Position numbers and translations under genes: made by a program. From a virus, in the IMG/VR virus record IMGVR_UViG_3300045988_173726, positions 192,001 through 256,000 of that record: DNA of 64,000 nucleotides. One strand, 5' to 3'. The notes under the pieces were generated by a model that saw nothing but the letters and a program-made list of their open reading frames with translations, searched no databases and had not been told where the DNA came from. Position 1 is the first letter of the stretch, and the number at the start of each line of letters is the position of its first letter. Shown one piece after another: positions 4,411 through 29,697 of the stretch.

Positions 4411-4543
4411 GCGCCGAGAAGCCCCTATACGGGCGTCTAATCTTTAGGCGGTAAAGGTATCAATGGAAGCCCTATCGTGTCTCTACGGGGCGCGTGGTGT
4501 GCGAGAGAGGCAATCTAGGTTTAGTTTATACGGGAGGATAGAG

Positions 4544-6703
4544 ATGGCAGAGGTCAGTCAAAATTTTTACACATCGGATTCGATTAAGTCCTTAAAGGGT
4601 GCAGAGCCGTATCGTTTGCGTCCAGAGACAGTGCTTGGGACGAAGGACGAGAACGGTGTGCTTCATGCGGAGTTTGAGGTATTGTCGAATGCGACCGATG
4701 AGGTGCGAGAGGGTCATTCGGACAAGGTGATTGTTCGGACATTTAAGGACGGAGCGATTGAGATACAGGATTTCGGTCGCGGCGTGCCTATGGGGTGGAA
4801 TGAGGCAGAGGGGAAGTATGCGTATGAGTTAATCTTCTGTACGATGTATGCCTCGGGAAAGTATGACGCTTCAAACTATAGCCGTTCAGCGGGCTTAAAC
4901 GGTATCGGAGACACGGCGGCGCAGTTTACTTCGGAGTATATGGATGTGGAGTCGGTGCGTGACGAGCATAAGAATGTCGTGTTTAACGGTGATGGCAGTG
5001 TGAAGTCGTTTGATACGGTGAGAACGCGCTATACGATGCGCTTTGAGAAGGGTTATCCCGTAGGGGAGTTGCAGATAGAAGAGGGCGTTGAACAGCATAC
5101 AGGGACTAAGATTAAGTTTAAGCCCGATTTAGAAGAGGTTTTTAAGGACGCGCAGACGATTCATTTCGACATAAGCACATATCTTACGAGGCTTCGGCGG
5201 GATTCGATGCTAAGTGGGGCGCTTATGGAGCTTCACTACGAGGATATGAAGCCGATAGAGGTGTATTATCCAGACGGGGTGAAGAGTTGGCTTGACGAGA
5301 CTGTTCCTGTAGAGAGCCGATATACAAAGGATTTGTTATCGTTTAGTGGTTCTGGGACAGGTAAGGATAGCGATACAGCCTCGGCAGAGGAGTATACGGC
5401 GACTTACGATATAAATTTCGGGTTCAAGAAGTACTCTGCAAAGGTAGAAGTGGACGATGAGGGCGAGCAGAGTTCGGTTTACGAGGTTTATCATAACGGC
5501 GGTCTTTTGTCGGAGGGTGGTGCGCCGTCAGAGGGCTTTTATGACGCGGTGATTAATGTTCTAAACGGCTATGCAAGGTCTGTGGGCGTGCTATCCAAAA
5601 AAGATAGATTCAAGCGAGAGGATTTAAGCGGTGTTCTATTCGCGGTAGTGTCAACGGAGTGCCCTGGTTATCTTACGAACTACATGAACCAGACGAAAGT
5701 CGCAATCACGAACAGGTTTATCCGTAAGCTTGTAAGCGAGCAGACGAAGAAGTATTTTGAGAACTGGGTGCTTTCGCATAAGGCAGAGCTAGATGATGTC
5801 GTGCAGGCGGCGATTACAGCGAAGTCCGCGCGTGAGAAAGCGGATGCTGTGCGTCAAGCCGACTTAAAGCAGTTATCAAAGGGAGTAGACAGCTTTAGGA
5901 GTGCACCGGAGAAGCTTACGAGGTGTACTAGCAGGAAAGCAAGTGAGTGCGAGCTGTATATCGTAGAGGGGGATTCGGCAAAAGGACCAATCGTCTTAGC
6001 GCGTGATTCTAAGACGCAAGCGGTTTTGCCTGTGCGTGGAAAGATAATTAACTGCATTACGGCTAGTTTAGCAGAGATATTAAAGTCGGATGTAGTGCTT
6101 GCGCTCGTGCAGAGTATCGGGTGCGGTGTAGAGGCAAAGAGTAAGCTGTTAAAGGATTTGCCACAGTTTGATATTACAAAGCTAAACTACGATAAGATTA
6201 TCATTTGTACGGACGCGGATGATGACGGGTATCATATTCGATGCTTGGTTTTAACGGTGCTGTATAGGCTAATGCCGACACTGATTCGCGAGGGCAAGGT
6301 TTATATCGCGGAAACCCCCTTGTTTCTTATCGACACGCACGGCGGTAAGGGGAAGAAAGCTACGAAGTATGCGTATACGACAGCGGAGAAGGATAAGCTT
6401 GTAACGCGGCTCATTTTAGACGGGATAAAGGAGTCCGACATACTGGTAAAGCGGTTAAAGGGACTTGGCGAGACGAGTGCGGCGGTGATGCACACGACAA
6501 CGATGGATAAGAGGAATCGTCATTTAATACGGGTGACGATGGAGAATTTGCAGGAGTTTGCGTCACTTGCGGAAAGTCTGATGGGGACGGATGTTCCGAG
6601 CCGTAGAAGTTTGGTGGAAGCCTACTACGAGACAGATTTCGAGGAGATAGCATACGACACGGAAGAGGGATTGCCGAAGGTAGTCGATGCCGACCTTTTG
6701 TAA
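4544..6703 (+). CDS. type IIA DNA topoisomerase, ATPase/Toprim subunit (GyrB/ParE/T4 gp39-like)
   Basis: GGGAGG RBS before ATG 4544. GHKL ATPase motif GLNGIGDTAAQ; Toprim motif LYIVEGDSAKG; LPVRGKIIN; IICTDADDDGYHI. Confidence 0.9.
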   Translation: MAEVSQNFYTSDSIKSLKGAEPYRLRPETVLGTKDENGVLHAEFEVLSNATDEVREGHSDKVIVRTFKDGAIEIQDFGRGVPMGWNEAEGKYAYELIFCTMYASGKYDASNYSRSAGLNGIGDTAAQFTSEYMDVESVRDEHKNVVFNGDGSVKSFDTVRTRYTMRFEKGYPVGELQIEEGVEQHTGTKIKFKPDLEEVFKDAQTIHFDISTYLTRLRRDSMLSGALMELHYEDMKPIEVYYPDGVKSWLDETVPVESRYTKDLLSFSGSGTGKDSDTASAEEYTATYDINFGFKKYSAKVEVDDEGEQSSVYEVYHNGGLLSEGGAPSEGFYDAVINVLNGYARSVGVLSKKDRFKREDLSGVLFAVVSTECPGYLTNYMNQTKVAITNRFIRKLVSEQTKKYFENWVLSHKAELDDVVQAAITAKSAREKADAVRQADLKQLSKGVDSFRSAPEKLTRCTSRKASECELYIVEGDSAKGPIVLARDSKTQAVLPVRGKIINCITASLAEILKSDVVLALVQSIGCGVEAKSKLLKDLPQFDITKLNYDKIIICTDADDDGYHIRCLVLTVLYRLMPTLIREGKVYIAETPLFLIDTHGGKGKKATKYAYTTAEKDKLVTRLILDGIKESDILVKRLKGLGETSAAVMHTTTMDKRNRHLIRVTMENLQEFASLAESLMGTDVPSRRSLVEAYYETDFEEIAYDTEEGLPKVVDADLL

Positions 6704-6782
6704 GTCCGTTTGATTTGTAATCCTTAGATATACGGTGGTACCATTTGGCGTATCACCGTATATTTTAAGCGGAGGTATAGGT

Positions 6783-7739
6783 ATGCAAATAGAGTTGCGG
6801 GAAATCCCGAAGCGGATGCTTTACGAGGTCACACGGGTAAGACAGGTAGTTCGGTTTCGGATGCTTACAGATGCGGAGCAGATAGCGTATAAGTGTGATG
6901 TTTATACGGATATAGCGATTTTAGATGTGTCGGGGCGGCGTATTCTAAAGTTTATAAGTCGAAAGGAGCTTGTGCGGGAATATAGGACAGCGCTTGGGAA
7001 GAAGATTAGGCTTATAGGCTTGCACTATCGAAAGACATATTTGGCAGTGCAGGAGGATAATCGGACGCTGTATGCTACAAAGGTAAAGGGGAATCATACG
7101 CTGACGGTACGGGGACGGGCTGTGCCGAGAGATACGCTTATCGTGTTTTCCTTGGTGGGAGACGCGATAGACTATAATAGCCTTGAGTTTTATACGGGTC
7201 GCACGGGAGAGATGCTGTTTAAGAAGCAGTATCATATCGTGGGTCGAGTAAGGGGAGCAGAGGCGATGCGCTCTGTAAAGTCCGTAAAGTCTACGCCGTC
7301 CGTTACGCCTACGGGAGCGCCTGTGATAAGCGTATATACGGGTGAGCGCGGAGAGCTTGATGAGATTCGGGCATTGCAGGAAGAGAGAAGTCGGGTAGAG
7401 AGTACAAAGGTCTGGAGTCCGACTGACAGCAAAGAAGAGGACGAGTTAAAGACAGCGCCGTATGTAGTCGTGTATAAGCTACTTCGGGGTGGTAAGAGTC
7501 TGGTCGGGTTTATTGTGCGTGACACGCGGTTGAATCCAGATGAGAGTAGTCTTACGCTCGGGAAAGGCGATAAGCCTGTTAATCTTAGTATGGCAAAGGA
7601 ACTCTGTATCAGTAAGCAGATACGGAATATGACGATAGGAGTTCGGAAAGAGAACAATAAGGTGTTCTTTAGAGGAGTCGGGATAAGACTTGAAAATGTT
7701 CCGCAGTTTCCAGTCGAGCGGTTAAGCGGAAGGAAGTAA
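6783..7739 (+). CDS. hypothetical protein located between the two topoisomerase subunit genes
   Basis: GGAGG RBS before ATG 6783 (MQIELREIPK); long ORF in the coding strand orientation. No recognisable catalytic motif. It carries the small recurrent 'GF-x-V-x-D ... L-x-x-x-x-I-x-N' module seen in several other ORFs here. Confidence 0.6.
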   Translation: MQIELREIPKRMLYEVTRVRQVVRFRMLTDAEQIAYKCDVYTDIAILDVSGRRILKFISRKELVREYRTALGKKIRLIGLHYRKTYLAVQEDNRTLYATKVKGNHTLTVRGRAVPRDTLIVFSLVGDAIDYNSLEFYTGRTGEMLFKKQYHIVGRVRGAEAMRSVKSVKSTPSVTPTGAPVISVYTGERGELDEIRALQEERSRVESTKVWSPTDSKEEDELKTAPYVVVYKLLRGGKSLVGFIVRDTRLNPDESSLTLGKGDKPVNLSMAKELCISKQIRNMTIGVRKENNKVFFRGVGIRLENVPQFPVERLSGRK

Positions 7740-7865: not shown

Positions 7866-10070
7866 ATGATTGTCAACAAAGACATCGGGGAGCTGTTTAT
7901 TCGGAATTATGTGCAGTATGCAAAGATGACGATACAGGCGAGAGCGATTCCAGACGCGCGGGATGGCATGAAGCCCGTCCAGCGCCGAATCTTGTATTCG
8001 ATGCATGATAACGGCATGTATGCGTTTGACAAGAACGGGAAGGCGGGGAAGGCGTATAAGTCAACCAGAATCGTGGGTGATGTTATGGGTAAATATCATC
8101 CGCACGGAGATATGTCTATTTACGGGTCGCTTGTAGACTTGACGGACGATAAGGGGGTAACGCTTGCGCCGTATGTGCATGGAGATGGAACTTTCGGTCG
8201 TGTATGGTCGGATAAGATAATCGCGGCGAGTTCGAGATATACGGAGGCTAATCTACTGCCGATTGCGCGGGAGCTGTTTGACGGGTTAAACGAGGATGCC
8301 GTGGATATGTCTCCGAACTTTGATAACAGCGAGGAAGAGCCGACTTTGTTGCCTGTAACTTTCCCGACTATTCTGGTAGGGTCTACGGACGGCATTGCGG
8401 TAGGGTTTAGCTCAAGTGTTCCGAGGTTTAGCCTTAAGAGTGTCTGTAATACGGCGATAGGTATGCTTAATGGAAAGTATAATAAGGCAGAGGACATTTT
8501 AGCTGTACTTGGGCTTCCAGATTTCAGCACAGGCGGGTTTATTCATCGTAATGACGCAGAGCTTCTTAGGTTGTTAAAGACGGGTAGGGGTTCGTTTACG
8601 GTAAGCGGGACGGTAACTGTCCTTCGGGATAAGATTATTGTAACGGAAGTGCCTGTAGGTACGACAGTTGAGAAGATAGACGAGAAGATACGGGAGTTGA
8701 TTGCCGAGGGCAGGGTGTTAAAGGGAGTCCGAGATGTGATTAACTCATCGGGCTTTGACACAGTTAAGAACGAGGCGAAGTTAGGTCTTACGATAGAGTT
8801 AAAGAACGGAGCGGATGCAGATAGGACGCTTGCGGAGCTTTGTCGGTATACGCCTCTTAGAACTCGGGTAAGCTTTACGACACGGGTCTTAATGGGAGAG
8901 GGTTGTAAAGAGGGTCGTCCGACCGAGCTAGGCGTTTATGAGCTACTTTGTAAGTGGCTTGAGTGGCGACAGGGGACGGTAATTCGGCAGTATAGCTATA
9001 AGCTTGAGAAAGAGAAGCGTAACGAGTATCTGCTATCGTCTTGGGAGAAGATAAGCAGTCGTTGCAGTGAGTTTGTGCAGGATGTAGCTACGAATGACGA
9101 GGATAAGCTGTTTACTCTTTGCGAAGAGAAGTATGGACTCACAAAAGAGCAGACAGAGTATCTAATTGAGAAGAAGATACGGAGTATCACGCAGGACAAG
9201 GTAGCGAGTGCTTTAGCCCAGCTTAAGAAGTCCAGAGAGGATATGTCGTATTACGAGCGGGTTGTGACGGATGAGGGAGAGAGAACGAAGTTAATCGTGT
9301 CACAGCTTGAGCGGGTAAGAGACACTTACGGGATTGAGAGAAAGTGCGCGGTAGCGGACGCGGTTGTAGAGTCCGAGATAGACGAGCGTCTAGCAGAGGT
9401 CGTGCAGGACTGTGATGTAAGCGTGGTAGTCACGAGAAGCGGTCTTGCGAAGCGGTTTATGAATCCTTCGGACAGCGAGGGGGCGGATAGCCTGCTTGTA
9501 AGCAAGGATGACGAAGTAAGGTGGAAGATAGACTGCAATAACCGAGATACGCTATTGGTGTTTACGACAACAGGCGTTTGTTACAAAGTAGCCGTGCATG
9601 ATATAGACAATTCAAGTAGGACTAGAATCAAGAACAGCCTTTGGAATATCGCAACAAAGACAGAGGACGGTGGAATCCTGTATGTAACGAATGCAGGAGA
9701 CTATTCTGGTGGCTTTACGGTCATTTACGGTGACGGAAAGGCTATGTATGTACCTCTCTGCACGGTAAACGGAAAGCGCAGTAAGTATATCAATGTGTTT
9801 ATGGATATTACGGCGCATAACGGCGGGATTGTGACAGAGCATGAGAAGTTTTTTGTCACGACAAAGCGGAATTACGCGAAGCTTGTAGACTTAGCAGGTT
9901 TATCCAGTCTTGATAGGCGTTCAAAGTTTAGGGTTGCGAGTTTAACAAAGGGGGATAACATTGTTAAGCTCGTGCCGTCCGATAAGGTAGCGAATTTCGA
10001 TAGTGTGGATTGGAGTCCATATTGCAAGCCTTATGCAGTAAAGATTAAGTCATATCTGCCGATTTTATAA
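7866..10070 (+). CDS. type IIA DNA topoisomerase, breakage-reunion subunit (GyrA/ParC/T4 gp52-like)
   Basis: PDARDGMKPVQRRILYSM, KYHPHGDMSIYGSLV, and the catalytic Tyr context SSRYTEANL. Confidence 0.9.
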   Translation: MIVNKDIGELFIRNYVQYAKMTIQARAIPDARDGMKPVQRRILYSMHDNGMYAFDKNGKAGKAYKSTRIVGDVMGKYHPHGDMSIYGSLVDLTDDKGVTLAPYVHGDGTFGRVWSDKIIAASSRYTEANLLPIARELFDGLNEDAVDMSPNFDNSEEEPTLLPVTFPTILVGSTDGIAVGFSSSVPRFSLKSVCNTAIGMLNGKYNKAEDILAVLGLPDFSTGGFIHRNDAELLRLLKTGRGSFTVSGTVTVLRDKIIVTEVPVGTTVEKIDEKIRELIAEGRVLKGVRDVINSSGFDTVKNEAKLGLTIELKNGADADRTLAELCRYTPLRTRVSFTTRVLMGEGCKEGRPTELGVYELLCKWLEWRQGTVIRQYSYKLEKEKRNEYLLSSWEKISSRCSEFVQDVATNDEDKLFTLCEEKYGLTKEQTEYLIEKKIRSITQDKVASALAQLKKSREDMSYYERVVTDEGERTKLIVSQLERVRDTYGIERKCAVADAVVESEIDERLAEVVQDCDVSVVVTRSGLAKRFMNPSDSEGADSLLVSKDDEVRWKIDCNNRDTLLVFTTTGVCYKVAVHDIDNSSRTRIKNSLWNIATKTEDGGILYVTNAGDYSGGFTVIYGDGKAMYVPLCTVNGKRSKYINVFMDITAHNGGIVTEHEKFFVTTKRNYAKLVDLAGLSSLDRRSKFRVASLTKGDNIVKLVPSDKVANFDSVDWSPYCKPYAVKIKSYLPIL

Positions 10071-10108: not shown

Positions 10109-11665
10109 ATGGCGAAGAAGCAAGTAATAGACTTCGATGCTGGTACGCTTGAGTCGCTAGAGATAATCTTTTCAGCGCTCACGGTCGGTAGCAGTCTAGT
10201 GAAGAATCCAGATATGCTTGCGCGGAAACGGGAAACATATCAAGAGGCTATGCGGGAGTTTATAAGCCAGTTTACGGTAAATGTATTCTATAACGAATAT
10301 TATTTCCTATACCAGCTAATCCGCGTAGCGAAGATAACAAATTTCGGAGAGGCACAGATAAGTTCCGAGATAGAGGCAAACAGTGCGGATATTCTGTCAT
10401 CCCCGTTTATTGAGGTCGTTACAGAGTATGTAGCGGGGAACGGAAATGTAATATCGGATGACGAGAAGGTAGAGTATTTTCGAGAGGTAGTGATTGAGCG
10501 GGTTACGAAGCTTGCGAATCGGGAAGTAACGATGAGTGAGTTTTTGTCAGCCTGTGAGCAGTATAAGAGAGCCTATAAGAATCAAGTGATGTTGCAGACT
10601 GCGAATGCGATGTCTATGATAATGCAGAGTACAGGGTATGATGAGCCTCGTAAGCGCGGTGGAGTAAAGCATTTGCAGGGTTATCTTGACGCTTCTGACT
10701 ATTATAGTCGCCAGTCAGCCCGTATACGGGAGTTAGATAACGAGAGTGGGAGTAGGGCTATCGTCATTGATAATGACTGGGTGATGAATGAGAACGAGAG
10801 AGATAAGTCGCCCGAGGATACGATAGTCCTAGACTACGGGATAGAGGAGCTGGATAAAGTTTGCCGAGGGATACGGCGAACGAATATGCTAAACATTATT
10901 GGACCAACGAAGGGTGGTAAGACAACTTTCACTTGTTACATGGTGCATAGAGCCTTGAAGCGTGGCTTAAATGTAGCTATTTGGGCGTTAGAGGGAACAT
11001 ATAGCGAATGGATGGCGCAGTTAATCGCCTTGACAGCATTGGATATGCGAAAAGAGGGCGATGTTTCGGTAATCCAGAAGTCAGATATACTGCATCAGAG
11101 CTACAAGACGGACGAGGTTCGTGTAGCGGTAGGAGCGGCGAGACAGCATTTGGTATCTGGTGCGGGAATGGGGAAGCTTTCGTTTATCGGTGGAGCGGCG
11201 TATATTGAAGATTATATTGATACAATAGATAATCACAGGAGAAACGAGAACAAGTTTGATGTGATAGTCGTAGACTCGCCCGTGCTTGTGGTAAGTAGGA
11301 CAGGTCGAACGAAGGTGGATAGAGCGGGAGAGGCGTTCACTTCGCTAAAGAACTATGTTGCGAATCAAGTGCCAGAGGGTGCGGTAGCGATAGTTACAGC
11401 GCAGTTAAAGCAGGATGTAGTAAACAGCATGAGAGCGAACAAAGACCAGACTTTGGATGTGACGGTAGGTGCAGAGACTTCGGAGACTATCAAAACGCCA
11501 GACGAGGTAATTGGTTTGTTTAGCTCAAAGGAAGAGCGCTTAACGGGAAAGATGAAGATATATAATATAGCGGCGCGGCATCATGAGACATTTAGGGACT
11601 GTTATATCGGGTGTGACATGAGTTGCGGGACATTCTTTAGTCAGCCAGAGTTAAACGAGGGTTAA
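10109..11665 (+). CDS. DnaB-family / RecA-fold replicative DNA helicase
   Basis: AAGGAGAGG RBS. C-terminal P-loop domain with Walker A IIGPTKGGKTTF and Walker B-like FDVIVVDSP; helical N-terminal region. Confidence 0.7.
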   Translation: MAKKQVIDFDAGTLESLEIIFSALTVGSSLVKNPDMLARKRETYQEAMREFISQFTVNVFYNEYYFLYQLIRVAKITNFGEAQISSEIEANSADILSSPFIEVVTEYVAGNGNVISDDEKVEYFREVVIERVTKLANREVTMSEFLSACEQYKRAYKNQVMLQTANAMSMIMQSTGYDEPRKRGGVKHLQGYLDASDYYSRQSARIRELDNESGSRAIVIDNDWVMNENERDKSPEDTIVLDYGIEELDKVCRGIRRTNMLNIIGPTKGGKTTFTCYMVHRALKRGLNVAIWALEGTYSEWMAQLIALTALDMRKEGDVSVIQKSDILHQSYKTDEVRVAVGAARQHLVSGAGMGKLSFIGGAAYIEDYIDTIDNHRRNENKFDVIVVDSPVLVVSRTGRTKVDRAGEAFTSLKNYVANQVPEGAVAIVTAQLKQDVVNSMRANKDQTLDVTVGAETSETIKTPDEVIGLFSSKEERLTGKMKIYNIAARHHETFRDCYIGCDMSCGTFFSQPELNEG

Positions 11666-12362: not shown

Positions 12363-13310
12363 TTGAAAGCGAGTATACGGGGGATAACGCTAGGTACGGA
12401 CGGGGCGAGGCAAGCTTATTGTATGCAGGAGATAAGTCTTGAGAGTTTAGCAAAGACTTGTGCGGGGGTTAAGGTCTTACTCGGGATAGACGGGTCGTCT
12501 ACATGTACGGGCGTGTCGGTATTTAACCTAGGGAACGGCGGGCTAATCGGGACGATAGCGTTAAAGCGTAGCAGTAAAGAGGACGCGGTTCACTATAAGG
12601 TGGAGTTAAAGCGGTTTCTGGTAGAGTTACTGGGGGCAGTGGATGCGCGTGAGGCAGTGTATGAAGAGCCGTTCTTCGGGGTAAACGCTTTAACGAATAA
12701 GGTGCTGTTTATGCTCCGCTCGTCTGTCGAAGAGGTCATCGCCGAGAACGAGCCAAGGTTTAATCAGCTTAATTTTCACGAGATAAGTAACGCTAGGTGG
12801 AAGAAGCTGTTTTTAGAGAAAGTCCCGAAGGGCGGGAAAGAAGTGCAGAAGGCGGCGATACGGGAGAAAGTGCTTGCCTTGTACCCGTTCATGTGTGTAT
12901 GCACACAGGATGAGTGTGACGCGACAGGGATAGGGTACGCGGCGTGTAGGGCGGACAGTATAAAGGGGCTTGAGAATCAGCGTAAGCCGCGCCCGTTCCA
13001 GTATTGCATTGAGTTTTTCGGTGGGGACAGTGACGAGGAGTTTGTAGGGTGGTTTGACGGGAACTGGGAGAGGGTTTCAGTTCCCGAGGCGCTGGTTTGC
13101 GGTGGGTATTGGATTGTGCCGATAAAGGGGACAGGGAGCTTTGAGAACTATATCTACCGTGAGATGGGGGACGAGGATAATCTGCTGGTGCTAAGGTTTA
13201 GTAGTCAGCATCATGCGAATGTGGTGATGCAGTATCGGATAGCGGATTTGACGGTACGGAATAAGTTTATTTACGCAGTCGTCTGGAGGAAGCACAGGAA
13301 GAAAGCATAG
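12363..13310 (+). CDS. RuvC-like Holliday-junction resolvase with an extra C-terminal region of about 120 aa
   Basis: LLGIDGSSTCTGVSV (cf. RuvC ILGIDPGS..TG), YEEPFFG (cf. AIEQVF) and DECDATGIGYAA (cf. DAADALAIA). The start is uncertain: TTG 12363 or ATG 12423. Confidence 0.65.
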   Translation: MKASIRGITLGTDGARQAYCMQEISLESLAKTCAGVKVLLGIDGSSTCTGVSVFNLGNGGLIGTIALKRSSKEDAVHYKVELKRFLVELLGAVDAREAVYEEPFFGVNALTNKVLFMLRSSVEEVIAENEPRFNQLNFHEISNARWKKLFLEKVPKGGKEVQKAAIREKVLALYPFMCVCTQDECDATGIGYAACRADSIKGLENQRKPRPFQYCIEFFGGDSDEEFVGWFDGNWERVSVPEALVCGGYWIVPIKGTGSFENYIYREMGDEDNLLVLRFSSQHHANVVMQYRIADLTVRNKFIYAVVWRKHRKKA

Positions 13311-13522
13311 GGGGAGCATGGGGGAGTCTTTTAGTCGAAATGGTTTGACAAAAGACAGATAGGTGCGTTGCGGTAACAGCAGTGCGCGTTATATAAGGGC
13401 TTGGGCGGGTAGTAAAGATTGCCTGTTCAAGTCCTTTTGTAGTAATTAGTCGTACCGCTCCTAGTACTTTAGCAGTTTGGGCTTGCAAATAAAAGAATTT
13501 TGCCGAAAGGAGATTTTGGGTC

Positions 13523-13894
13523 ATGGGAGTTTGTAAGTTGTGCGGAGCGGATACCGAGCTTATTGATGGCAAGTGCTACAGGTGCTTATCGCTGTCTGTG
13601 TATGAGGAAGCAAAGATAGAGCCTGCGAGTGAAGAGGAAGAGGCGAAGTTTGCGGAGTCGTTAAAGGGTATGGCGGCTATGCTAGTCACGAAAACGCCGC
13701 TTGAGCTAATGAAAGAGCAGATAGCGGGTATTACTGACTCGGAGGCAGAGGAGTTTAAGCCAGACTATCAGATTATGTATCACAGGTATCGGGAGGCTAT
13801 CGACAGCGGAGCGTACTGTATGGTTTTGGCGTGGAACAGTGCAGGGAAAGAGGTAGTAGACGCTTCTAGGGCGATAGCTGTTTGTAAGGCGTAA
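13523..13894 (+). CDS. hypothetical protein with an N-terminal CxxC...CxxC zinc-ribbon-like motif
   Basis: AAGGAG RBS; CKLCGADTELIDGKCYRC. Confidence 0.6.
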   Translation: MGVCKLCGADTELIDGKCYRCLSLSVYEEAKIEPASEEEEAKFAESLKGMAAMLVTKTPLELMKEQIAGITDSEAEEFKPDYQIMYHRYREAIDSGAYCMVLAWNSAGKEVVDASRAIAVCKA

Positions 13895-13905
13895 GGGTAG
13901 CGAGA

Positions 13906-15045
13906 ATGGACGGGAGCGATAGCACGACTAAGTTACTGCTAGGGGCAGGGTTTAACAGCGTTGAGGGTCTTGAGCGGTATATACGGGGCTTACAGGAAGC
14001 CGAGCAGATTGGAGAGCCAGAGGTAAGCGACTCTGTGTATGATAATCTCATTCGGGTCTTACGGACAGTAAAGCCAGAGAGTAAGGTGTTAAATCGGAGT
14101 TTACCAGAGAGATGCTATCGTGGCGCAGGGCTAACAGTTATACGGGATTTATCGGAGTTAAGCTATCTAAGGCGGTTGTTTTTAGAAAAAGGGATAGATA
14201 CAAGTCTCTTATCGAGCGCAAAGATAGTCGGGCATAGCGTAACGATTAGGTATATTGACGGTAGGTATGCGAGTGGGGAATTTCGGTGCGGTATAGACAT
14301 AACCGAGGTTTTGCATAGCATAGTTCCAGCATATCTTCCAGAGCTAGGGTTTTACAGAGTGGTAACAATAGGCGGGGTAGTGACGATAAGCCGAAAGAAC
14401 TTTGATAAGGTCAGTCGGGTTTATAAAACGCCGTTAAGTGCGGTAACTTCGTTTATGCGGGAGACATCGAGCGCGGAAGAGAGAGGGCTACTAAGCCTAG
14501 TGTGTGACTCTATATCGAGTGAGGAAGATGATAGCTTTCGTAGCCTGCTTAATGAGTATCAGACGCTATCTGCTCTCGGGTTTTTGATTCCTACCTTTCG
14601 GGTAACGGATGGAGTGGGGGCGTATAACTTTGACACTCGGGTAGAAGAGATATTAAGCGAGTTTACGGGGCTTACGCTTCCCTTTGACGCAGACGGAGTG
14701 GTGGTAAGAGTAAACGATAACGCTTTGTTTCGAGAGTTAGGAGAAAACGGTAACACTTATCTCGGTGGGTTTATCCTAAAGACAGGGGAACGGTTTGGAG
14801 CGAAGGTCTATAGCGGGTTAATTCACGAGATAGAGTGGGAGTACGGGAGTGATAAGCTAAGTCCTAGGGCGGTAATAAGTCCTGTTACAGTGTATGACGG
14901 TAATACGATAAACACTGTGCCGCTTTATAGCGTGGGGGTTATGCGGGACAACAGCTTTACAGTAGGTTCTAAGATATATTTTTTATACGACAACGAGACA
15001 GGCGCGATGCTTTGTGACGAGGATGGAAAGGTCGTAAGCGCCTAG
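13906..15045 (+). CDS. NAD-dependent DNA ligase (LigA)-like adenylation + OB domains, with diverged catalytic motifs
   Basis: Aligns by eye with E. coli LigA. PEVSDSVYDNLIRVLRTVKPES matches PEIPDAEYDRLMRELRELE. SAKIVGHSVTIRYIDG matches ELKLDGLAVSILYENG, so motif I KxDG is KIVG here. FDADGVVVRVND matches FDIDGVVIKVN. The ORF stops before the Zn-finger/HhH/BRCT parts. Confidence 0.65.
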   Translation: MDGSDSTTKLLLGAGFNSVEGLERYIRGLQEAEQIGEPEVSDSVYDNLIRVLRTVKPESKVLNRSLPERCYRGAGLTVIRDLSELSYLRRLFLEKGIDTSLLSSAKIVGHSVTIRYIDGRYASGEFRCGIDITEVLHSIVPAYLPELGFYRVVTIGGVVTISRKNFDKVSRVYKTPLSAVTSFMRETSSAEERGLLSLVCDSISSEEDDSFRSLLNEYQTLSALGFLIPTFRVTDGVGAYNFDTRVEEILSEFTGLTLPFDADGVVVRVNDNALFRELGENGNTYLGGFILKTGERFGAKVYSGLIHEIEWEYGSDKLSPRAVISPVTVYDGNTINTVPLYSVGVMRDNSFTVGSKIYFLYDNETGAMLCDEDGKVVSA

Positions 15046-15062
15046 AGAGGGGGCAAAGAGAG

Positions 15063-16823
15063 ATGGATGGATTTAATAGCTTTGACGATGACGAGATAGA
15101 GCTTCCAGAGGACAAGGGAGAGGTTACAGACCTAGCGGATAACGGAGAGCTTGAAAGTAGCGAGGATACCTTTGATGACGACATAGACGGTCTTTTGGGT
15201 AACTATAACGGGGAAGCGGATGAGACAGAGGACAGTCATGCGGGCGAGGAAGTTCTGTATGACGATAACGGAGAGCCTTATTACGCGAGTGACTTGGTAG
15301 ATGAGGACGAGAGCGAAGAGTCGGGTCACGAGAGTTTATCAGAGGACGTAGAGGGTAGCACAGTAGGTTCGGACGAAGAGGACGGATTAGACACTATCAG
15401 CGAGGAAAGTGTTGATAGCATAGACGAGGAAGCGGATAGCGAAGAAGCCGAGGATGATACGAGTGATAGTACGGGTGAGGTGGCTACGGTTCGGAGTGAT
15501 AGTTTCCTAGACGAGAACGGAAATGTTCGGGTCATGGACACGGAGGCTTCGGGAGAGACTTTCGAGTTAATCAAGATAAAGTACGAGAATCTAGGCTATA
15601 GTAAGAGAATCCGCACGAGTAAGAATGTGGACGACTTGACAAGTAGCATACGGAGTACGGGTTTACTCAATCCTATCGTAGTTGCGCCGTCAGTCACAGA
15701 GGGCGTTTATGCGATAATTGACGGGTATCGAAGGATTCTTGCTTGTTCAAAGGTCGGAATCAAAGAGATTCCTGCAATCGTAAACAGAAAGATAACTACG
15801 AAAGAGATAGCTGTAGTAGAAGCTCTTTATAATCACAAGAAGCCCTACACGATGCAGGAGATAGTAGATTATATCGAGTATCTTGAAAAGGAGAAGGGAA
15901 TCACCGACCCGCCGACAGTTGAGTATTTATTAGACTTAAATAACGGTGACTACAGTAAGCTAAAAGACATTCTGTCGGACAATGACGAAGAGATAGTGAG
16001 TAAGCTCCTTGAGGGTCAGCTTACTATCGGGGAAGCGTTTAAGAGGCTTGAGAAGCGCCGTTCAAAGGAGACCCGTGAAGAGAAAGACATTAAGAAAGCG
16101 GGGAAAGTTTATAACGAGGGGGGCGGCACAGAGGAGAGCGCGTTAAATAACTCTGGCGAGATGGCAGACAGCGGAGAGGAGTCGGAAGAGGACAAGGGGT
16201 CGCGTTTAACAGCCGACCAGATAGCGGCGCTAGCTGTTGACCCGAGTAAGATAGATTCCGAGATAGAGGATAAGTCGCTTGACGAGATGATAGCGGAGAG
16301 CGATAAGACAGAGGGCTTTGAGCCGCATCAGCAGAAGGTAGGGGAGAGGGAGTATTTAGACCCTGCAATCAAGAAAGCGGTTTTAGCGAGAGACAAGTTT
16401 ACTTGCCAGTGCTGTGGAATTGGAAAAGACGATAGCGAGAGTTATGTAAGCGTAATGGACGCGCATCACATTATACCAGTCTTTCTCGGGGGCAAGGACA
16501 CCTCGGAGAGCGGAGTAACGAATATAGATAACATCGTTACGCTCTGCATCATCTGTCATAAAATGGTACATGAGTTTTCTACGGGAGATTTGCACTTGCC
16601 GAGAGAGCGTAAGGCAGACGAAGTAGCAGAGATGAGTGTGGAAGAGCGTGAGCAGTATAAGAAAGAGCAGACGCGCTTCAAGAAAGTCGTTTATTTTGGA
16701 GATTTAATCAGAAAGGCGATGGCACAGCGAGGTATCAATCGCAAGGAGTTTAAGAAACAGCATCCTTCTAACGCAATAGGACGAAGGAAGCCGGGAAAGA
16801 ACACGCCACAGGTCGATATTTAA
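15063..16823 (+). CDS. ParB-like nuclease domain + HNH endonuclease fusion with a long acidic N-terminal region
   Basis: The first ~160 aa are D/E/S-rich. ParB N-domain motif LNPIVVAPSVTEGVYAIIDGYRRILAC. C-terminal HNH: CQCCG...DAHHIIPVFLGG...NIVTLCIICHKMVH. Confidence 0.8.
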   Translation: MDGFNSFDDDEIELPEDKGEVTDLADNGELESSEDTFDDDIDGLLGNYNGEADETEDSHAGEEVLYDDNGEPYYASDLVDEDESEESGHESLSEDVEGSTVGSDEEDGLDTISEESVDSIDEEADSEEAEDDTSDSTGEVATVRSDSFLDENGNVRVMDTEASGETFELIKIKYENLGYSKRIRTSKNVDDLTSSIRSTGLLNPIVVAPSVTEGVYAIIDGYRRILACSKVGIKEIPAIVNRKITTKEIAVVEALYNHKKPYTMQEIVDYIEYLEKEKGITDPPTVEYLLDLNNGDYSKLKDILSDNDEEIVSKLLEGQLTIGEAFKRLEKRRSKETREEKDIKKAGKVYNEGGGTEESALNNSGEMADSGEESEEDKGSRLTADQIAALAVDPSKIDSEIEDKSLDEMIAESDKTEGFEPHQQKVGEREYLDPAIKKAVLARDKFTCQCCGIGKDDSESYVSVMDAHHIIPVFLGGKDTSESGVTNIDNIVTLCIICHKMVHEFSTGDLHLPRERKADEVAEMSVEEREQYKKEQTRFKKVVYFGDLIRKAMAQRGINRKEFKKQHPSNAIGRRKPGKNTPQVDI

Positions 16824-16847
16824 GCGTATAAGAGGGGGTAAAGTCCT

Positions 16848-17513
16848 TTGAGGGTAGGAAAGATAAGGTTAAGTCTGCATGGAGTGGCGTTAGCTTGCTA
16901 CTGCGCGGTATTTCTAGCGTTAGCGGTATTATCGGCAATGTTTTACGACATGCAGACCTTGGTTTACGGGTTTCTAGGAATATCAATGCTTGAACTCGGA
17001 TACTTGGTTATTCAGCAGAGCAGAGGAAAGACAGCTACTAAGAGTCCGAGCGTGAGGCTTGGGTTGGTAGCAGTTCTCGGGATTACGGTAGGCAGTCACT
17101 TTATAAGCTATGGTGCAGTGACTGCGGCGGCGGTGATAGCGGTGACAGGGCTTATTGTTATCGTGTTAAGCCTAAAGGAGATAGGTGCAAAAGAGGTTGT
17201 GCTTGCGTTTTGCTTAATGGTCGGTATGTCAGCGCTCACGCTTGTTTATCCGATGGGTTTATCAAGGTTTACGGATGAGCGGGATTTAAGAAGTGTAAGG
17301 GCGGTAGACAAGTATAGCGAGTATCTAGGAAACAGCGAGAAGCTATTAAGGCTTTCGCTAGACTATGATTTCTCGGTCGGGGGTAACGACATAGACGCGG
17401 ATACCCTAACGGTGCTTTCTTCGATTACTGGGAGAGAGGCAACGGTCGAAGCAGTTACGGACAGTGCGCTTGTAGACAGGGCGATAAGTGACTATAAGAA
17501 TAGTCGGGAGTAA
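16848..17513 (+). CDS. multi-pass membrane protein, unknown function
   Basis: TTG start 9 nt after AGAGGGGG. There are at least four hydrophobic segments (e.g. LACYCAVFLALAVLSAMF, AAAVIAVTGLIVIVLSL). Confidence 0.55.
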   Translation: MRVGKIRLSLHGVALACYCAVFLALAVLSAMFYDMQTLVYGFLGISMLELGYLVIQQSRGKTATKSPSVRLGLVAVLGITVGSHFISYGAVTAAAVIAVTGLIVIVLSLKEIGAKEVVLAFCLMVGMSALTLVYPMGLSRFTDERDLRSVRAVDKYSEYLGNSEKLLRLSLDYDFSVGGNDIDADTLTVLSSITGREATVEAVTDSALVDRAISDYKNSRE

Positions 17514-17516
17514 ACT

Positions 17517-18104
17517 ATGAAAGGCAAGATAATCACGCGAGAAGAGGTTATGAAGCGGAGTCTTATTTTGCCTGAGGTTTTAGCGAATATACCCGATAGG
17601 TGCGAGTGCGGGGGCGAAGTAGGGTTTAGTAGTGACCTTAGAGAAGTGGTCTGTCTAAATCCGAAGTGCTTTTATAAGACAGCGGAGCGGCTGGGCGACA
17701 TGGCAGAGGCTATGGGGGTAACGGGGTTTGATAAGTGGACTTGTACTCGGATTTGTAAAGAGTTTAAGTTAGAAAGCCCGTTTATGGCGTTTCTGATAGA
17801 GAGTAAAGATAAAGGTCTTAATGAGAAACTTAACGCCTTAAGGGAGAGTCCTAGCCGAGAGTGTAGCCTAGTCGAAATGGCAGAATACAGTGGGATTCCG
17901 TTGATAGCCGATAATGCAGAGACGCTGTTTCGTAAGGTAGGGAGTATCGAGCAGTTTTACGGCAGTATCATCGGGGAGCGAGTACGAGAGTGCTGTAGAG
18001 GCGGAGTTGGACTTTCGGAGTTAAGCGTAGCGCTTCAAGAGAGTAAAGAAGAATTGACGCTTGGCGAGCGGGTGTTTTATATAAGGGGTCGGCATGGCAG
18101 ATAA
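17517..18104 (+). CDS. LigA C-terminal-like protein (Zn-finger + helix-hairpin-helix region) encoded as a separate ORF
   Basis: [47 protein letters not shown] aligns with LigA [78 protein letters not shown] aligns with [31 protein letters not shown]. Confidence 0.6.
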   Translation: [195 protein letters not shown]

Positions 18105-18507
18105 ATACCGAGTAACTGGAAAAGTTTATTCTGGTGTGGAGATAGCAGGGTTTTCAATAGAGGACAGCGCGGGAGCGGTTAAGCATATCTCAAAGAAGAA
18201 GTTAATTGAGATGATAAAGGCAGGGCTTATAGAGAACATGGGTCTTGTTGAGAGGGACGGAGAGACAATAATAACTGGGGCATTTGACAAGATACCTTCG
18301 GTCGCAACGGTCGGGAGGCTCGGATATAAGAGCAGGGTTACGGACGACAGCGGTCATGTTACGGGGTACACGCTCTCTATTGAGGGAAAAGAGGACGAGA
18401 TAGAGGTAAGTATAGACAAGGCGTGGGAGCTGTGCTTTAGTGTCGGGGTAGCCGACATGAAAGCCTATCTTTCGCCAAGCAACGAGAAATATATCATTGT
18501 GAGTTGA
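18094..18507 (+). CDS. hypothetical protein (two copies of the small recurrent 'G-F/Y-x-h-x-D ... h-x-x-G-h-x-N' module)
   Basis: AAGGGG RBS. VEIAGFSIEDSAGAVKHISKKKLIEMIKAGLIENMG and GRLGYKSRVTDDSGHVTGYTLSI... Confidence 0.55.
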   Translation: MADKYRVTGKVYSGVEIAGFSIEDSAGAVKHISKKKLIEMIKAGLIENMGLVERDGETIITGAFDKIPSVATVGRLGYKSRVTDDSGHVTGYTLSIEGKEDEIEVSIDKAWELCFSVGVADMKAYLSPSNEKYIIVS

Positions 18508-18522
18508 TAGAGAGGTAACAAA

Positions 18523-18867
18523 ATGAGAAGTGCAGTGACAGCGGGTATCTTAATCGCGAATCTCCTGTTTATTTGGTGGTTTCGTAGATATAGCGAGGAC
18601 AGGGGAATGGTAGCCGAGAATCCGTTTAAGTTTATATACACATTTTATTGTGTGACGCTGTTTGGCGGGCTGTATGCGGCAAGGTTAAGCGATGTTTCGA
18701 TAGCTTCTAGGTTTACGAAAGCCTTTATGGAGTTACAGGTAATGCTTTTACTGTATAGTTTAGTAGTTCCGTTTGTAATCGGGGTAAAGAGCCTTGTTAA
18801 TAAGATTGCTACGGTGATTCTGGTATACAGTGCGAGCCTTCTTGTAATAAGGATTCTGGTTAGGTAA
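18523..18867 (+). CDS. small multi-pass membrane protein
   Basis: GAGAGG RBS; three hydrophobic segments. Confidence 0.55.
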   Translation: MRSAVTAGILIANLLFIWWFRRYSEDRGMVAENPFKFIYTFYCVTLFGGLYAARLSDVSIASRFTKAFMELQVMLLLYSLVVPFVIGVKSLVNKIATVILVYSASLLVIRILVR

Positions 18868-18911
18868 AGGCTGTGGATAGGGTGTAAAATAAAGACAACA
18901 GGGGAGTATTC

Positions 18912-20354
18912 ATGCAGAGTAGCGATATAACGAGAAGAAATGCGGCGAAGAGGATATTTGAGTATATAGCGACCGCAGAGAGTCCGAGTGCTAACGACTA
19001 TCTAAGGAGAGTGGTTAAGCAGTTTAAGGACGAGGATATAGACGCAGTAAGCGTGGTGTTTAGCACAGATTGCAAAAACCTTACTACGATTCAGAACTAT
19101 ATCGAGTATGTAGTAGCAGAGAAGCATAAGGCAGAGATTTCAGAGCGTTATTCTTCATATAAGCTAGGTTTATCTACGGCGACTGATTTAAGTGAGCAGT
19201 TAGCGGAGTGGGTAGCTACGCCGTGCTTTGAGTCGGTAGAGATAAACGAGGGTTTGCTAGGTACTAGCATAGAGACGCTTAAGAGCCTAGGCGTTCCCGC
19301 GATATATGTTAGGTATTTAACGAGTTATTACGGAACGACTTACGGAGAGGTCGTAAATACGAACGCTTTTAGGGTATTAGAGCCTAGGTTTCATTTGTCT
19401 AAGATGCTCTCTAAGCCGTTGGCAGAGGTAATAGACGAGATACTAAAGGAAGGCTGTGCTAGGTTTAAGACGAATGTCTACGAGTTTATAGAACTCTACT
19501 TAGACCCGTCAACGCGGATAACTTGTGCAGAGTTTGCGCGTAAGGTCGGCATTACGAAGCAGTTTATAAGTTTTAGTCTCGGCAGGGCGCTCGGAGAGGT
19601 AAGGGATATAGCGAAGGTTTATGCGTTTGGTGCAGATTTTTCAAAGCGTATACGGGTTTTAACAGAGAGTAGATATGATACGCTTATAAGTCTTATATTA
19701 GCACCGAGTCAGAGCCGTTATCCCCGTGTCGTAGGAATAGATGAGGGCGAGGTAGCAGAGCTAATCGGTGCGGTAGAGGAGCTTGGCGTAAGGGTTACTA
19801 AGCTAGGCGAAGCATATAGAGAGTTACACAACGAGTTTAATCTAAATCGTGACGAGTTTAATATGCTAATCGGTATGCTTGATAAGAAGCGGTATACGAT
19901 TACGGAGAGCAGTATAACGAGAAAGAAGCAGGAGATTTTCGACACACTAAACAGCCTTGTATCAGAGCAGTACGGAAGTAGCGGTATAGACATCAACGAC
20001 AACGAAGTGGTAGAAGCCCTAAACACTAAGATTAACGCCTTAAAGGGCTATGATAGAACGGTAGACGGACTAAAGGTAGCGATAAGGCGTGACTTAATGG
20101 ATTTAGGTAACGGCAGATATGCAAGCTTTGACGATGTGGAGTATAAAGCGACGGTAGTTCCGAGGTTAATGACTTATATCGTTTCAAACGGCGGTAAGGT
20201 AAACTACCTTGAGATGTTTGACGACTTAGAGTTTGTGTTAAAGAAGTACGGAATTACGAGTGCGGCGTATCTAAAGACAGTGCTTATAGTGGCGCTTGGG
20301 CATAAGGTTAAGTGCGGTCGGTGGTCTTGTGAAGTAAGGGAGGGAGTAGAGTGA
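18912..20354 (+). CDS. hypothetical protein with a possible helix-turn-helix (sigma region-4-like)
   Basis: Long ORF with a GGGGAG RBS. The segment ITCAEFARKVGITKQFISFSLGRAL resembles an HTH. The function is not established. Confidence 0.5.
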   Translation: MQSSDITRRNAAKRIFEYIATAESPSANDYLRRVVKQFKDEDIDAVSVVFSTDCKNLTTIQNYIEYVVAEKHKAEISERYSSYKLGLSTATDLSEQLAEWVATPCFESVEINEGLLGTSIETLKSLGVPAIYVRYLTSYYGTTYGEVVNTNAFRVLEPRFHLSKMLSKPLAEVIDEILKEGCARFKTNVYEFIELYLDPSTRITCAEFARKVGITKQFISFSLGRALGEVRDIAKVYAFGADFSKRIRVLTESRYDTLISLILAPSQSRYPRVVGIDEGEVAELIGAVEELGVRVTKLGEAYRELHNEFNLNRDEFNMLIGMLDKKRYTITESSITRKKQEIFDTLNSLVSEQYGSSGIDINDNEVVEALNTKINALKGYDRTVDGLKVAIRRDLMDLGNGRYASFDDVEYKATVVPRLMTYIVSNGGKVNYLEMFDDLEFVLKKYGITSAAYLKTVLIVALGHKVKCGRWSCEVREGVE

Positions 20355-22137: not shown

Positions 22138-22176
22138 AGGCTTAAATAGTATAACTAGTTGGAAACGGAGGGCAAA

Positions 22177-23145
22177 ATGGCAGGGAACAGTAATCTTCAC
22201 AGAGCAAAAGAGGCGAAGAACGATGAGTTCTACACACAGCTTTCGGATGTAGAGAATGAGCTTGTGCATTATCGGGAGCATTTTAGGGGTAAGACAGTGT
22301 TTTGTAACTGTGATGACCCGACATGGAGTGCGTTCTGGAAGTATTTTCATTTGAATTTCGGCTTTCTTGGTCTTACGCGTCTTGTTTCTACGCATTACGA
22401 CAAAGAGCAAAGCACATATATGATGGAGTATCTTGGCGGGGATGATAACGATGTGAGTGTCGGGACGAAAACGCCGCTCAAGGGAAACGGAGATTTTAGA
22501 AACGAAGAGTGTTTGGAATTGCTTCGGCAGAGTGACATCGTGGTGACGAACCCGCCGTTTTCGCTGTTTAGAGAGTTTATCGGGACGCTGATGGAGTATG
22601 AGAAGAAGTTTATTGTGTGGGGAAACAATAACGCTGTAACATATAAGGAATTCTTTCCGTTGATTCGTGAAGATAAGTTATGGCTCGGGTATTTGTCGAA
22701 TAAGACCTGCATATTCGGGGTAGGTGAAGGCTATAGGTACGATGAGAAGATAACGGCACAGATGAATGACGGAATGAAGTACGGGAAAGTTCCTGCAATT
22801 TCGACTTTTACCAACCTCGACATCAAGAAGCGTCACGAAAATCTTATTCTCTATAAGCATTATAGTCCCGAGGGATTTCCGAAGTATGATAACTACGATG
22901 CAATCAACGTAGACAAGGTATCGGATATACCGATGGATTATGACGGAGTAATGGGAGTTCCTATTACATTTCTCGACAAGTATAATCCAGAGCAGTTTGT
23001 GCTTATCGGAACAGATTTTCAAGTAAAAGACGGCGAGTTAGCTGACATCAGAAATAAGAGTTGGGGCGGTAAGTTTGACAGGGGCTATATTAACGGTAAG
23101 CGTCTCTATTCGAGGGTGTTTATTCGTAAAACATTACATAGCTAA
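22177..23145 (+). CDS. adenine-specific DNA methyltransferase, EcoRI-methylase-like family (paralog 1 of 3)
   Basis: GGAGGG RBS. N-terminal RAKEAKNDEFYTQLSDVENEL...GKTVFCNCDDP and catalytic VVTNPPFSLFREFI. Paralogous to 43594-44601 and 44588-45463. Confidence 0.8.
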   Translation: MAGNSNLHRAKEAKNDEFYTQLSDVENELVHYREHFRGKTVFCNCDDPTWSAFWKYFHLNFGFLGLTRLVSTHYDKEQSTYMMEYLGGDDNDVSVGTKTPLKGNGDFRNEECLELLRQSDIVVTNPPFSLFREFIGTLMEYEKKFIVWGNNNAVTYKEFFPLIREDKLWLGYLSNKTCIFGVGEGYRYDEKITAQMNDGMKYGKVPAISTFTNLDIKKRHENLILYKHYSPEGFPKYDNYDAINVDKVSDIPMDYDGVMGVPITFLDKYNPEQFVLIGTDFQVKDGELADIRNKSWGGKFDRGYINGKRLYSRVFIRKTLHS

Positions 23146-28738: not shown

Positions 28739-28811
28739 CGGGATGTGGCTCAAGTGGTAGAGCGCTTGCTTTGGGAGCAAGACGTTGCAGGTTCAAGTCC
28801 TGTCATTCCGA
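28739..28811 (+). tRNA. tRNA-Pro (anticodon TGG)
   Basis: Hand-folded cloverleaf: CGGGATG / TG / GCTC-AAGTGGTA-GAGC / G / CTTGC-TTTGGGA-GCAAG / ACGTT / GCAGG-TTCAAGT-CCTGT / CATTCCG / A. No encoded CCA. Confidence 0.85.
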
Positions 28812-28884
28812 TTTACCGTATGGGGATGTACGGTAAGCCACTTTGCCTCCTTACAATGTGGGATTTTCCAGACGGATAGACGGT

Positions 28885-28950
28885 GTGGCGGTAGTGTAGA
28901 GGGAGCATGACGCTAAGGCGTAGGAGCGGGTTCGAGCCTCGCCCGTCACA
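28885..28950 (+). ncRNA. tRNA-like element TL1 (66 nt) lacking an anticodon loop
   Basis: GTGGCGG / CCGTCAC acceptor; D arm GTGT-AGAGGGA-GCAT; canonical T arm GCGGG-TTCGAGC-CTCGC. The anticodon-arm position holds only ACGC-TAAG-GCGT. No 5-bp/7-nt-loop alternative was found by exhaustive hand check. Confidence 0.45.
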
Positions 28951-29026
28951 TTAGCTGACTTCGGTCAGCGAACATTTTCCTCATCTCCAACAAACAGAGC
29001 GGCGAGTGCGTGAATACCATTCGCCT

Positions 29027-29075
29027 CGGATACGCGACATATGGTCGCCGCTGGGTGCAAGTCCTAGGTATCCGA
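29027..29075 (+). ncRNA. tRNA-like mini-element TL2 (49 nt)
   Basis: CGGATAC / GTATCCG acceptor; one hairpin GCGAC-ATATG-GTCGC; T-like arm CTGGG-TGCAAGT-CCTAG. The T loop is non-canonical. Confidence 0.3.
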
Positions 29076-29131
29076 TTTGCTAGAGCATCCGTGAACAGTG
29101 CTTTAGCGGTTAACCAATCAAATTGTCTTGG

Positions 29132-29190
29132 AAGTCAGTAGTTTAGTGGTAAAACGCTTTGAGACGCGGGTTCGAGTCCCGTCTGACTTC
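29132..29190 (+). ncRNA. tRNA-like element TL3 (59 nt): tRNA-Gly-type body without an anticodon arm
   Basis: AAGTCAG / TA / GTTT-AGTGGTA-AAAC / G / CTTTGAGAC / GCGGG-TTCGAGT-CCCGT / CTGACTT / C. Only 9 nt occupy the place of the ~22-nt anticodon arm plus variable loop. Confidence 0.5.
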
Positions 29191-29260
29191 TTCCGTCCCT
29201 CGGAATTTCCCCCGTTGGCTTGAGAAGGCTCACCGACACACAACTCCGAGGAGACGGTTT

Positions 29261-29306
29261 ACGGGCGCGGTAAGGCGCAGTGGGGGTTCAACTTCCCCCG
29301 CCCGTT
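29261..29306 (+). ncRNA. tRNA-like minihelix TL4 (46 nt)
   Basis: Perfect 7-bp acceptor ACGGGCG / CGCCCGT, a 14-nt linker, and a canonical T arm GGGGG-TTCAACT-TCCCC. Confidence 0.4.
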
Positions 29307-29368
29307 CTGTGCGGTCGTTGTCTTGCAAAATACCTGCCAAGTGAGACAGCGCTCCGCACTCCCCCCAA

Positions 29369-29442
29369 GGAAAGGTGGCTCAATAGGTGAGAGCATTCGG
29401 CTCATAACCGAACGGTTGCGGGTTCGAGTCCCGCCCTTTCCA
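29369..29442 (+). tRNA. tRNA with CAT anticodon (elongator Met or, after lysidinylation, Ile2)
   Basis: GGAAAGG / TG / GCTC-AATAGGTGA-GAGC / A / TTCGG-CTCATAA-CCGAA / CGGTT / GCGGG-TTCGAGT-CCCGC / CCTTTCC / A. Initiator hallmarks are absent (G1:C72 pair; no GGG/CCC in the anticodon stem). Confidence 0.85.
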
Positions 29443-29455
29443 CTAGAGTTTTTAG

Positions 29456-29519: not shown

Positions 29520-29587
29520 TAGCCGTAGTTCCGTGATACTCCATATCTGCTACGGTGAATCCTTTCTGGTACCTGCTGGTGCTTGGT

Positions 29588-29652: not shown

Positions 29653-29697
29653 TTTGTCCGAAGGTCGGGCAAAAATACTATGGTTTCGATTACTCGG

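Follow-up and report, generated by a model that had tools for sequence, protein, structure and literature searches.

Here we describe a pair of genes resembling the two halves of a nicotinamide adenine dinucleotide (NAD+)-dependent DNA ligase, in which the A-like half carries a degenerate active site, from the replication module of a large gut-type phage with a genome of ~260 kb. The portion of that genome that was analysed, hereafter the window, is a stretch of 64 kb (IMG/VR record IMGVR_UViG_3300045988_173726, positions 192,001 to 256,000), and coordinates below are counted from its first nucleotide unless the locus of a relative is named. Four plus-strand genes are densely packed at 13906-18104, with intergenic gaps of 3-25 nucleotides (nt): an open reading frame (ORF) resembling ligase subunit A (ORF1), a gene with a ParB_N and an HNH nuclease domain (ParB-HNH), a membrane-protein gene, and an ORF resembling ligase subunit B (ORF2). 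This layout had been recognised in a first-pass annotation made from the letters alone, and domain matches, structures and hydropathy bear it out. The surrounding genes include type II topoisomerase subunits, a DnaB-like helicase and a RuvC-like resolvase (Table 1).

Table 1. Ligase-like genes, active-site positions of the A-like protein and neighbouring replication genes in the window (aa, amino acids)
Feature	Position	Strand	Remarks
A-subunit-like gene (ORF1), 379 aa	13906-15045	+	LigA Ia, nucleotidyltransferase and OB domains; active site degenerate
Motif I equivalent, K106-I-V-G109	14221-14232	+	Lys and Gly kept; Asp/Asn position is Val here
Motif III equivalent, G156-G157-V158 for R-G-E	14371-14379	+	From HMMER alignment to 9hu3_A; ribose-contacting Glu gone
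D201, aligned with the adenine-stacking Tyr225 of E. coli LigA	14506-14508	+	From broad family alignments
Motif IV equivalent, D263-G-V-V-V-R268	14692-14709	+	Asp and Gly kept; Lys290 replaced by Arg
K292, motif V Lys (E. coli K314 equivalent)	14779-14781	+	In 94/94 clusters; conserved family-wide
ParB_N + HNH nuclease gene, 586 aa	15063-16823	+	PF02195, E 1.5e-11; PF01844, E 7e-7
Membrane-protein gene, 221 aa	16848-17513	+	~5 hydrophobic segments (hydropathy scan)
B-subunit-like gene (ORF2), 195 aa	17517-18104	+	Zn finger and HhH; stops before BRCT
Cys4 zinc-finger motif, C29, C31, C46, C51	17601-17669	+	Invariant, including distant relatives
Type II topoisomerase subunits	4463-6703 and 7866-10070		Replication module around the ligase halves
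DnaB-like helicase	10109-11665		Replication module around the ligase halves
RuvC-like resolvase	12363-13310		Replication module around the ligase halves

ORF1 has the domain Ia, nucleotidyltransferase and OB fold of an NAD+-dependent DNA ligase (EC 6.5.1.2). It matches Pfam PF01653 above the gathering score (E 1.4e-8), aligns with positions 27-368 of 656 of phrog_3869, 'NAD-dependent DNA ligase' (E 1.6e-23), and finds its top sequence match among solved structures in 9hu3_A, the A chain of the phage PR1 ligase (residues 18-359, E 2.5e-10). An AlphaFold model (predicted local distance difference test, pLDDT, 84) retrieves LigA structures by Foldseek at E values of about 1e-24. The homology of ORF2 is fainter in single-sequence searches, which gave no Pfam match and a weak match to phrog_3869 positions 388-522 (E 4e-4). 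Its family profile nevertheless matches 9hu3_B, 'DNA ligase subunit B', as its best solved structure (E 1.3e-5), hhalign against PR1 LigB gives a probability of 96% over 229 columns, and its AlphaFold model (pLDDT 89) finds Escherichia coli LigA, 2owo_A, with a Foldseek probability of 1.0 and a TM-score of 0.56. The absence of a BRCT domain, remarked on in the first-pass annotation, is exact: ORF2 ends at residue 195, the very point where the BRCT of its relatives starts. Other B-type homologues (190 recovered) are mostly 290-335 aa, those bearing a BRCT spanning 287-335 aa, and the first HhH hairpin reads GFD in ORF2 as against GFG in relatives.

Phages with a split NAD+ ligase have been described before. 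T5-like phages have 'NAD-dependent DNA ligase subunit A' and 'subunit B' annotated as separate genes, and mentions of the split ligase of T5 go back to 2005 (cited in PMC1684257). The A and B genes are adjacent in Providencia phage PR1 and have one unrelated ORF between them in Vibrio phage KIT04, and two structures released in 2026 (PDB 9hu3 and 9i5i) are titled 'PR1 phage heterodimeric DNA ligase in complex with 21-mer nicked DNA'. The literature search returned nothing specific on a paper describing the PR1 heterodimeric ligase or on inactive phage LigA homologues. T5 LigA/LigB and PR1 share with the window the boundary of the split, with A comprising Ia, nucleotidyltransferase and OB domains and B running from the Zn finger, and also the placement of two separate genes in a replication module. 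They differ in that the halves in the window are separated by the conserved ParB-HNH gene and the membrane-protein gene, in that the B subunits of PR1 and KIT04 carry a C-terminal BRCT which ORF2 lacks, and in sequence, identity to the window being just ~25%. Bacterial LigA (E. coli 2owo, T. filiformis 1dgs) shares the Ia, nucleotidyltransferase, OB, Zn and HhH folds, but is one chain of 670 aa with a BRCT, whereas here the Zn-HhH portion is an ORF 2.4 kb downstream.

Closer relatives were found in a search of 1.84 billion representatives, where ~100 short A-type proteins (~365-510 aa) lie nearer to ORF1 than any full-length LigA, the first of which appears at about E 1e-12 with 25-28% identity. 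In the phage GenBank collection there was no close relative of ORF1, the best match having ~26% identity. Among the short A/B pairs of jumbo phages (L009-L011; P0127-P0206) A is 33-39% and B 32-40% identical to the window, an N-terminal extension and the signatures KTPLSAVTS and ALKxG are shared, and genes stand in the same order of DnaB, RuvC-like, A, ParB-HNH and, further on, B. These pairs differ from ours in keeping the residue set K-N/D-R-E-Y-D-K and a B of 287-335 aa with BRCT; the clade of the window has lost four such features.

This loss was followed in a family alignment of 150 representatives together with T5-like and canonical LigA sequences, in which we scored seven positions: Lys and Asp of motif I, Arg of the TRG segment, Glu of motif III, the stacking Tyr, Asp of motif IV and Lys of motif V. 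Some 65 short A-type representatives are uniform at these sites (K-N/D-R-E-Y/F-D-K, Asn commonly standing in for the motif I Asp), and since all of them keep the seven residues the sites must normally be constrained in the short A family. The clade of the window comprises 94 A clusters at 90% identity, and a residue census over these gives a different picture. At motif I the nucleophilic Lys (K106, E. coli K115) and the Gly (G109) are each present in 93 of 94 clusters, whereas position 108, equivalent to E. coli D117, is V in 84, S in 3, R in 3, I in 2, A in 1 and C in 1. The first-pass claim that KxDG has become K-I-V-G here is therefore sound, relatives having KxNG or KxDG. Position 158 (E. 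coli E173) is V in 91 clusters and E in 3, and position 156, where the R-G-E triplet of motif III has its Arg, is G, C, D or S; the annotation had the loss of the Glu right but its register one residue off, R-G-E aligning with the triplet given in Table 1. A further departure that it did not mention is the loss of the equivalent of Tyr225, the residue that stacks on adenine in E. coli LigA (PMC5052709 Table 1), the position being D in 84 clusters, N in 8, K in 1 and E in 1. D117, E173 and Y225 are all listed as residues that E. coli LigA needs to bind adenylate or for catalysis (PMC5052709 Table 1; PMC8123306), and Haloferax LigN with its motif I Asp changed to Ala is adenylation-defective and inactive (PMC1684257). 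By comparison, the A subunits of PR1 and KIT04 have canonical KLDG, TRG(D/N)G and (R/T)GE motifs and the stacking Tyr.

Other apparent departures carry less weight. The statement that the TRGDG segment is absent was too strong: the loop bearing it is indeed four residues shorter in ORF1, but an Arg, Arg127, is kept in 93 of 94 clusters and coincides with the motif Arg (R136 equivalent) in two alignments, though not in two others. Likewise DGVVVR was read correctly at motif IV, but its Arg is no sign of divergence, because canonical-motif phage ligases including PR1 and KIT04 share it, and we rejected the Lys-to-Arg change as evidence of inactivity. The equivalent of Arg200 is Leu in ORF1, another point missing from the first-pass annotation, and this change is family-wide. 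Set against bacterial LigA, then, the motif I Lys, the motif IV Asp-Gly and the motif V Lys remain, whereas D117, R136, E173, R200, Y225 and K290 are absent or replaced. What is retained is retained firmly: R127, R185, D263 (92/94), G264 (94/94), R268 (94/94) and K292 are conserved in 92-94 of 94 clusters, D42, Y45 and D46 of domain Ia are near-invariant, and so are residues 164-200 and 261-300. Judged from these alignments, the catalytic divergence is real, holds clade-wide and is specific to this sub-lineage.

Degeneration of the A-like protein extends beyond the clade. Eleven further representatives (P0133, P0138, P0142, P0147, P0151, P0178, P0187, P0190, P0191, P0203 and P0208) each have their own set of substitutions at the scored sites, with the Lys itself gone in P0133, P0138, P0187 and P0190, and in a neighbour-joining distance tree these lineages cluster with the clade of the window. 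In their genomic contexts A is followed by ParB-HNH; a full-length B comes after it in L020, and no B gene was found within ~10 kb in L017, L021 and L022. In L013 A keeps all key residues, yet no B gene was detected within 10 kb. The ratio of nonsynonymous to synonymous substitution rates (dN/dS), calculated over the window and seven related genomes (eight in all), is 0.17 for A and 0.15 for B, with dS 0.2-0.4; it is 0.13 for ParB-HNH, 0.08 for RuvC and 0.013 for DnaB. Selection on A and B is laxer than on DnaB and RuvC and is far from neutral. Clustering at 90% identity gives 94 clusters for A and 32 for B, and the ORFs in them are mostly full-length, with a few shorter ones in each set. The pair so combines the loss of catalytic residues conserved in active homologues with retention under purifying selection, as a pseudoenzyme would.

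The first-pass annotation had offered as one option that a mobile HNH element was inserted into an intact ligA and that the halves reassemble as in homing-split phage genes. An HNH-domain gene does lie between the halves, KIT04 likewise has an unrelated ORF between its subunits, and by analogy with PR1 the halves could still associate. The comparison with relatives tells otherwise. In L009, L010 and L011, viral contigs of 200-295 kb, the order is DnaB, RuvC-like, A, ParB-HNH, 1-2 ORFs and B, and there A is 33-38%, B 32-33% and ParB-HNH 48-51% identical to the window; ParB-HNH holds the same position throughout L009-L014 at 45-51% identity, and in L017, L020, L021 and L022 as well A is followed by a ParB_N gene, with HNH or without it. 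Because it is constantly present, being found in every relative examined, and better conserved than its neighbours, ParB-HNH appears to be a conserved core gene, not a sporadic homing element, and a dN/dS of 0.13 is also at odds with the insertion scenario. No fused ligase, the intact form that a recent disruption would have left among relatives, occurs among the ~100 nearest representatives of ORF1, and in PR1 no HNH gene lies between the adjacent A and B. An intron was rejected, as there is no match to an intron or other RNA family of Rfam in 13000-19000, and an intein was rejected too, the end of A and the start of B being too short for split-intein halves. With the order conserved in distant relatives and ParB-HNH outlasting the halves in identity (48-51% against 32-38%), the insertion is unsupported, and on synteny and conservation we rejected a recent mobile-element split, which we consider very improbable. 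The split is, as gene order and alignments indicate, an old T5-like A/B architecture, neither new nor recent. The membrane-protein gene is specific to the clade of the window: it is 86-90% identical among loci of the clade, is missing from L009-L013, and has no family match in Pfam or PHROGs.

We favour the view that the pair is ligase-derived, having retained the LigA fold and probably DNA binding while losing normal adenylate chemistry, and would put the probability of this at roughly one half. Both ORFs would descend from a two-subunit NAD+-dependent ligase of the T5/PR1 type, with A (Ia, nucleotidyltransferase and OB) and B (Zn, HhH and BRCT), which would long have belonged to the replication module of a group of ~200-300 kb phages. 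Within the clade of the window A would then have lost the residues that hold and activate the adenylate, namely the Asp/Asn of motif I, the Glu of motif III, the stacking Tyr and part of the TRG loop, while keeping the fold, domain Ia, the Lys and further basic residues whose positions are essential in the E. coli enzyme, R208 of which is described as DNA-binding. B would have kept its Zn finger and HhH region and lost the BRCT, and sealing would be left to another ligase, that of the host or one encoded elsewhere in the phage genome. It is plausible, by analogy with 9hu3, that the halves work together as a heterodimer, and they may do so physically on nicked DNA. Since both genes are under purifying selection and the residues are lost, the most likely role is that of a DNA- or nick-binding protein in the replication module with no sealing or very poor sealing. 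This agrees with the other option of the first-pass annotation, a protein repurposed without ligase activity, for which the comparative evidence of drifting catalytic positions under purifying selection now argues. There is something of a parallel in the standalone ligase DNA-binding domains of jumbo phages, which are also ligase-derived, non-catalytic and found in a replication context, and which a review has proposed to recruit host ligase (PMC7824862).

Several observations weigh against this view. The nucleophilic Lys, the motif IV Asp-Gly, the motif V Lys and D42/Y45/D46 of domain Ia are conserved as they would be in a working if unusual adenylyltransferase, and a Glu is found at position 158 in 3 of 94 clusters. 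The baseline of the whole family itself departs from the 'essential' residues of E. coli (R200 is Leu/Phe, K290 is variable and D117 is Asn), so the E. coli residue rules do not transfer cleanly, and catalytic residues could have migrated elsewhere in the fold. It also should be considered that the neighbour-joining grouping of the degenerate lineages may partly reflect long branches. One may accordingly suppose a two-subunit ligase that still works with a remodelled active site, other residues or B compensating for the Asp, Glu and Tyr. The near-invariance of K106, G109, D263-G264, R268, K292, R185 and the domain Ia residues would fit this, as would the setting beside DnaB, RuvC and topoisomerase II, the purifying selection on both halves and the tolerance of the family for Asn at Asp117 and Leu at Arg200. 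No second ligase was found among the large ORFs of the window scanned with Pfam and PHROGs, which would also suit an active enzyme; as this covered 64 of ~260 kb, a further ligase elsewhere in the genome is possible. However, six different residues occupy the Asp/Asn position in a clade that is >80% identical, and the equivalents of Tyr225 and Arg171 drift too; such drift at an active site points to lost constraint and not to a new fixed solution. In addition, all seven key residues are intact in ~65 relatives, even the Lys is gone from sister degenerate lineages, the BRCT is lost and the first HhH hairpin is altered from GFG to GFD. We regard an active ligase as unlikely but still as the main rival, given the conservation of the Lys, of motifs IV and V and of domain Ia. 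The opposite extreme is that both ORFs are slowly decaying relics of an unneeded ligase with no function of their own. Decay of the A active site, loss of the BRCT from B, loss of B altogether in related lineages, and dN/dS values above those of DnaB and RuvC could all be taken this way. Yet the ORFs stay mostly full-length across their clusters, dN/dS is 0.15-0.17 at dS 0.2-0.4, long stretches (164-200 and 261-300) are invariant, the predicted folds are confident, and degenerate A genes persist in deeply diverged lineages. Given the selection data, relics seem improbable.

If the pair is a binding factor derived from a ligase, as we favour, the obvious candidate partner would be the ParB-HNH nuclease that is always adjacent. 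Taken further, a jumbo-phage lineage might have turned a heterodimeric NAD+ ligase into a nick-recognising, non-sealing factor that works with ParB-HNH, its role being to mark, protect or maintain deliberate single-strand interruptions or to pass nicks to the host ligase. Since A survives in lineages that have lost B, its role would in that case not depend on B. This fuller scheme is speculative, and we think it unlikely.

A number of other features were recorded in passing. Nearly all long ORFs of window positions 1-64000 are on the plus strand, and GC skew is clearly positive in each 2 kb bin (about +0.2 to +0.38). Promoters and terminators between the four genes showed no excess over shuffled sequence. 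An ORF at 18094-18507 (137 aa, weak DUF3892 match) shares 11 nt with the end of the B-like gene, and homologues of its domain lie downstream of ParB-HNH in L017 and L021, both of which are without B. Upstream, an unassigned ORF of 334 aa (6735-7739) separates the GyrB-like and GyrA-like topoisomerase genes, and 1-2 ORFs likewise stand between the two subunits in L016, L017 and L022. In L013 a Fic/DOC-domain gene (13017-14105; PF02661, E 1.5e-15) follows ParB-HNH, and very large genes that extend past the edges of the loci, with products of 2029 to 5908 residues, occur a few kb after the ligase-like gene in L017 (15506-19212), L021 (14673-19436) and L022 (14363-21104). Elsewhere in the window, nine tRNA genes (Pro, Met, Tyr, two Leu, two Ser, Arg and Thr) occupy 28739-30988, with a PP-loop ATPase gene directly 3' of the array (31463-32452; PF01171, E 1.7e-45). 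Two overlapping tandem paralogues of an EcoRI-type adenine methyltransferase lie at 43594-45463 (PF13651, E 1e-115 and 1.5e-90), and additional methyltransferase-like genes at 548-2662 and 22159-23145. A protein joining GmrSD_N (DUF262, with a ParB-like fold) to HNH at 45875-47035 makes a second pairing of a ParB-like domain with HNH in the window, in addition to the one between the ligase halves. A transglutaminase-core protein (39137-41098) and a peptidoglycan hydrolase with SH3 and NlpC/P60 domains (41863-42933) complete the list.

The novelty lies in the persistence of the A/B pair throughout a clade of large phages despite the decay of the residues that bind adenylate, and in the existence of related lineages from which even the catalytic Lys, or else the partner subunit, is gone. 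A practical consequence concerns annotation, such ORFs being currently labelled 'NAD-dependent DNA ligase', a label to be treated with caution. The conserved position of ParB-HNH between the halves offers a testable lead to a functional partnership. If the pair is inactive, it would be a LigA-derived pseudoenzyme within a viral replication module, of which we found no description in the literature searched, and the family would provide a natural series of sequences, from active-looking through partly degenerate to those without the Lys, that separates DNA recognition by LigA from its chemistry.

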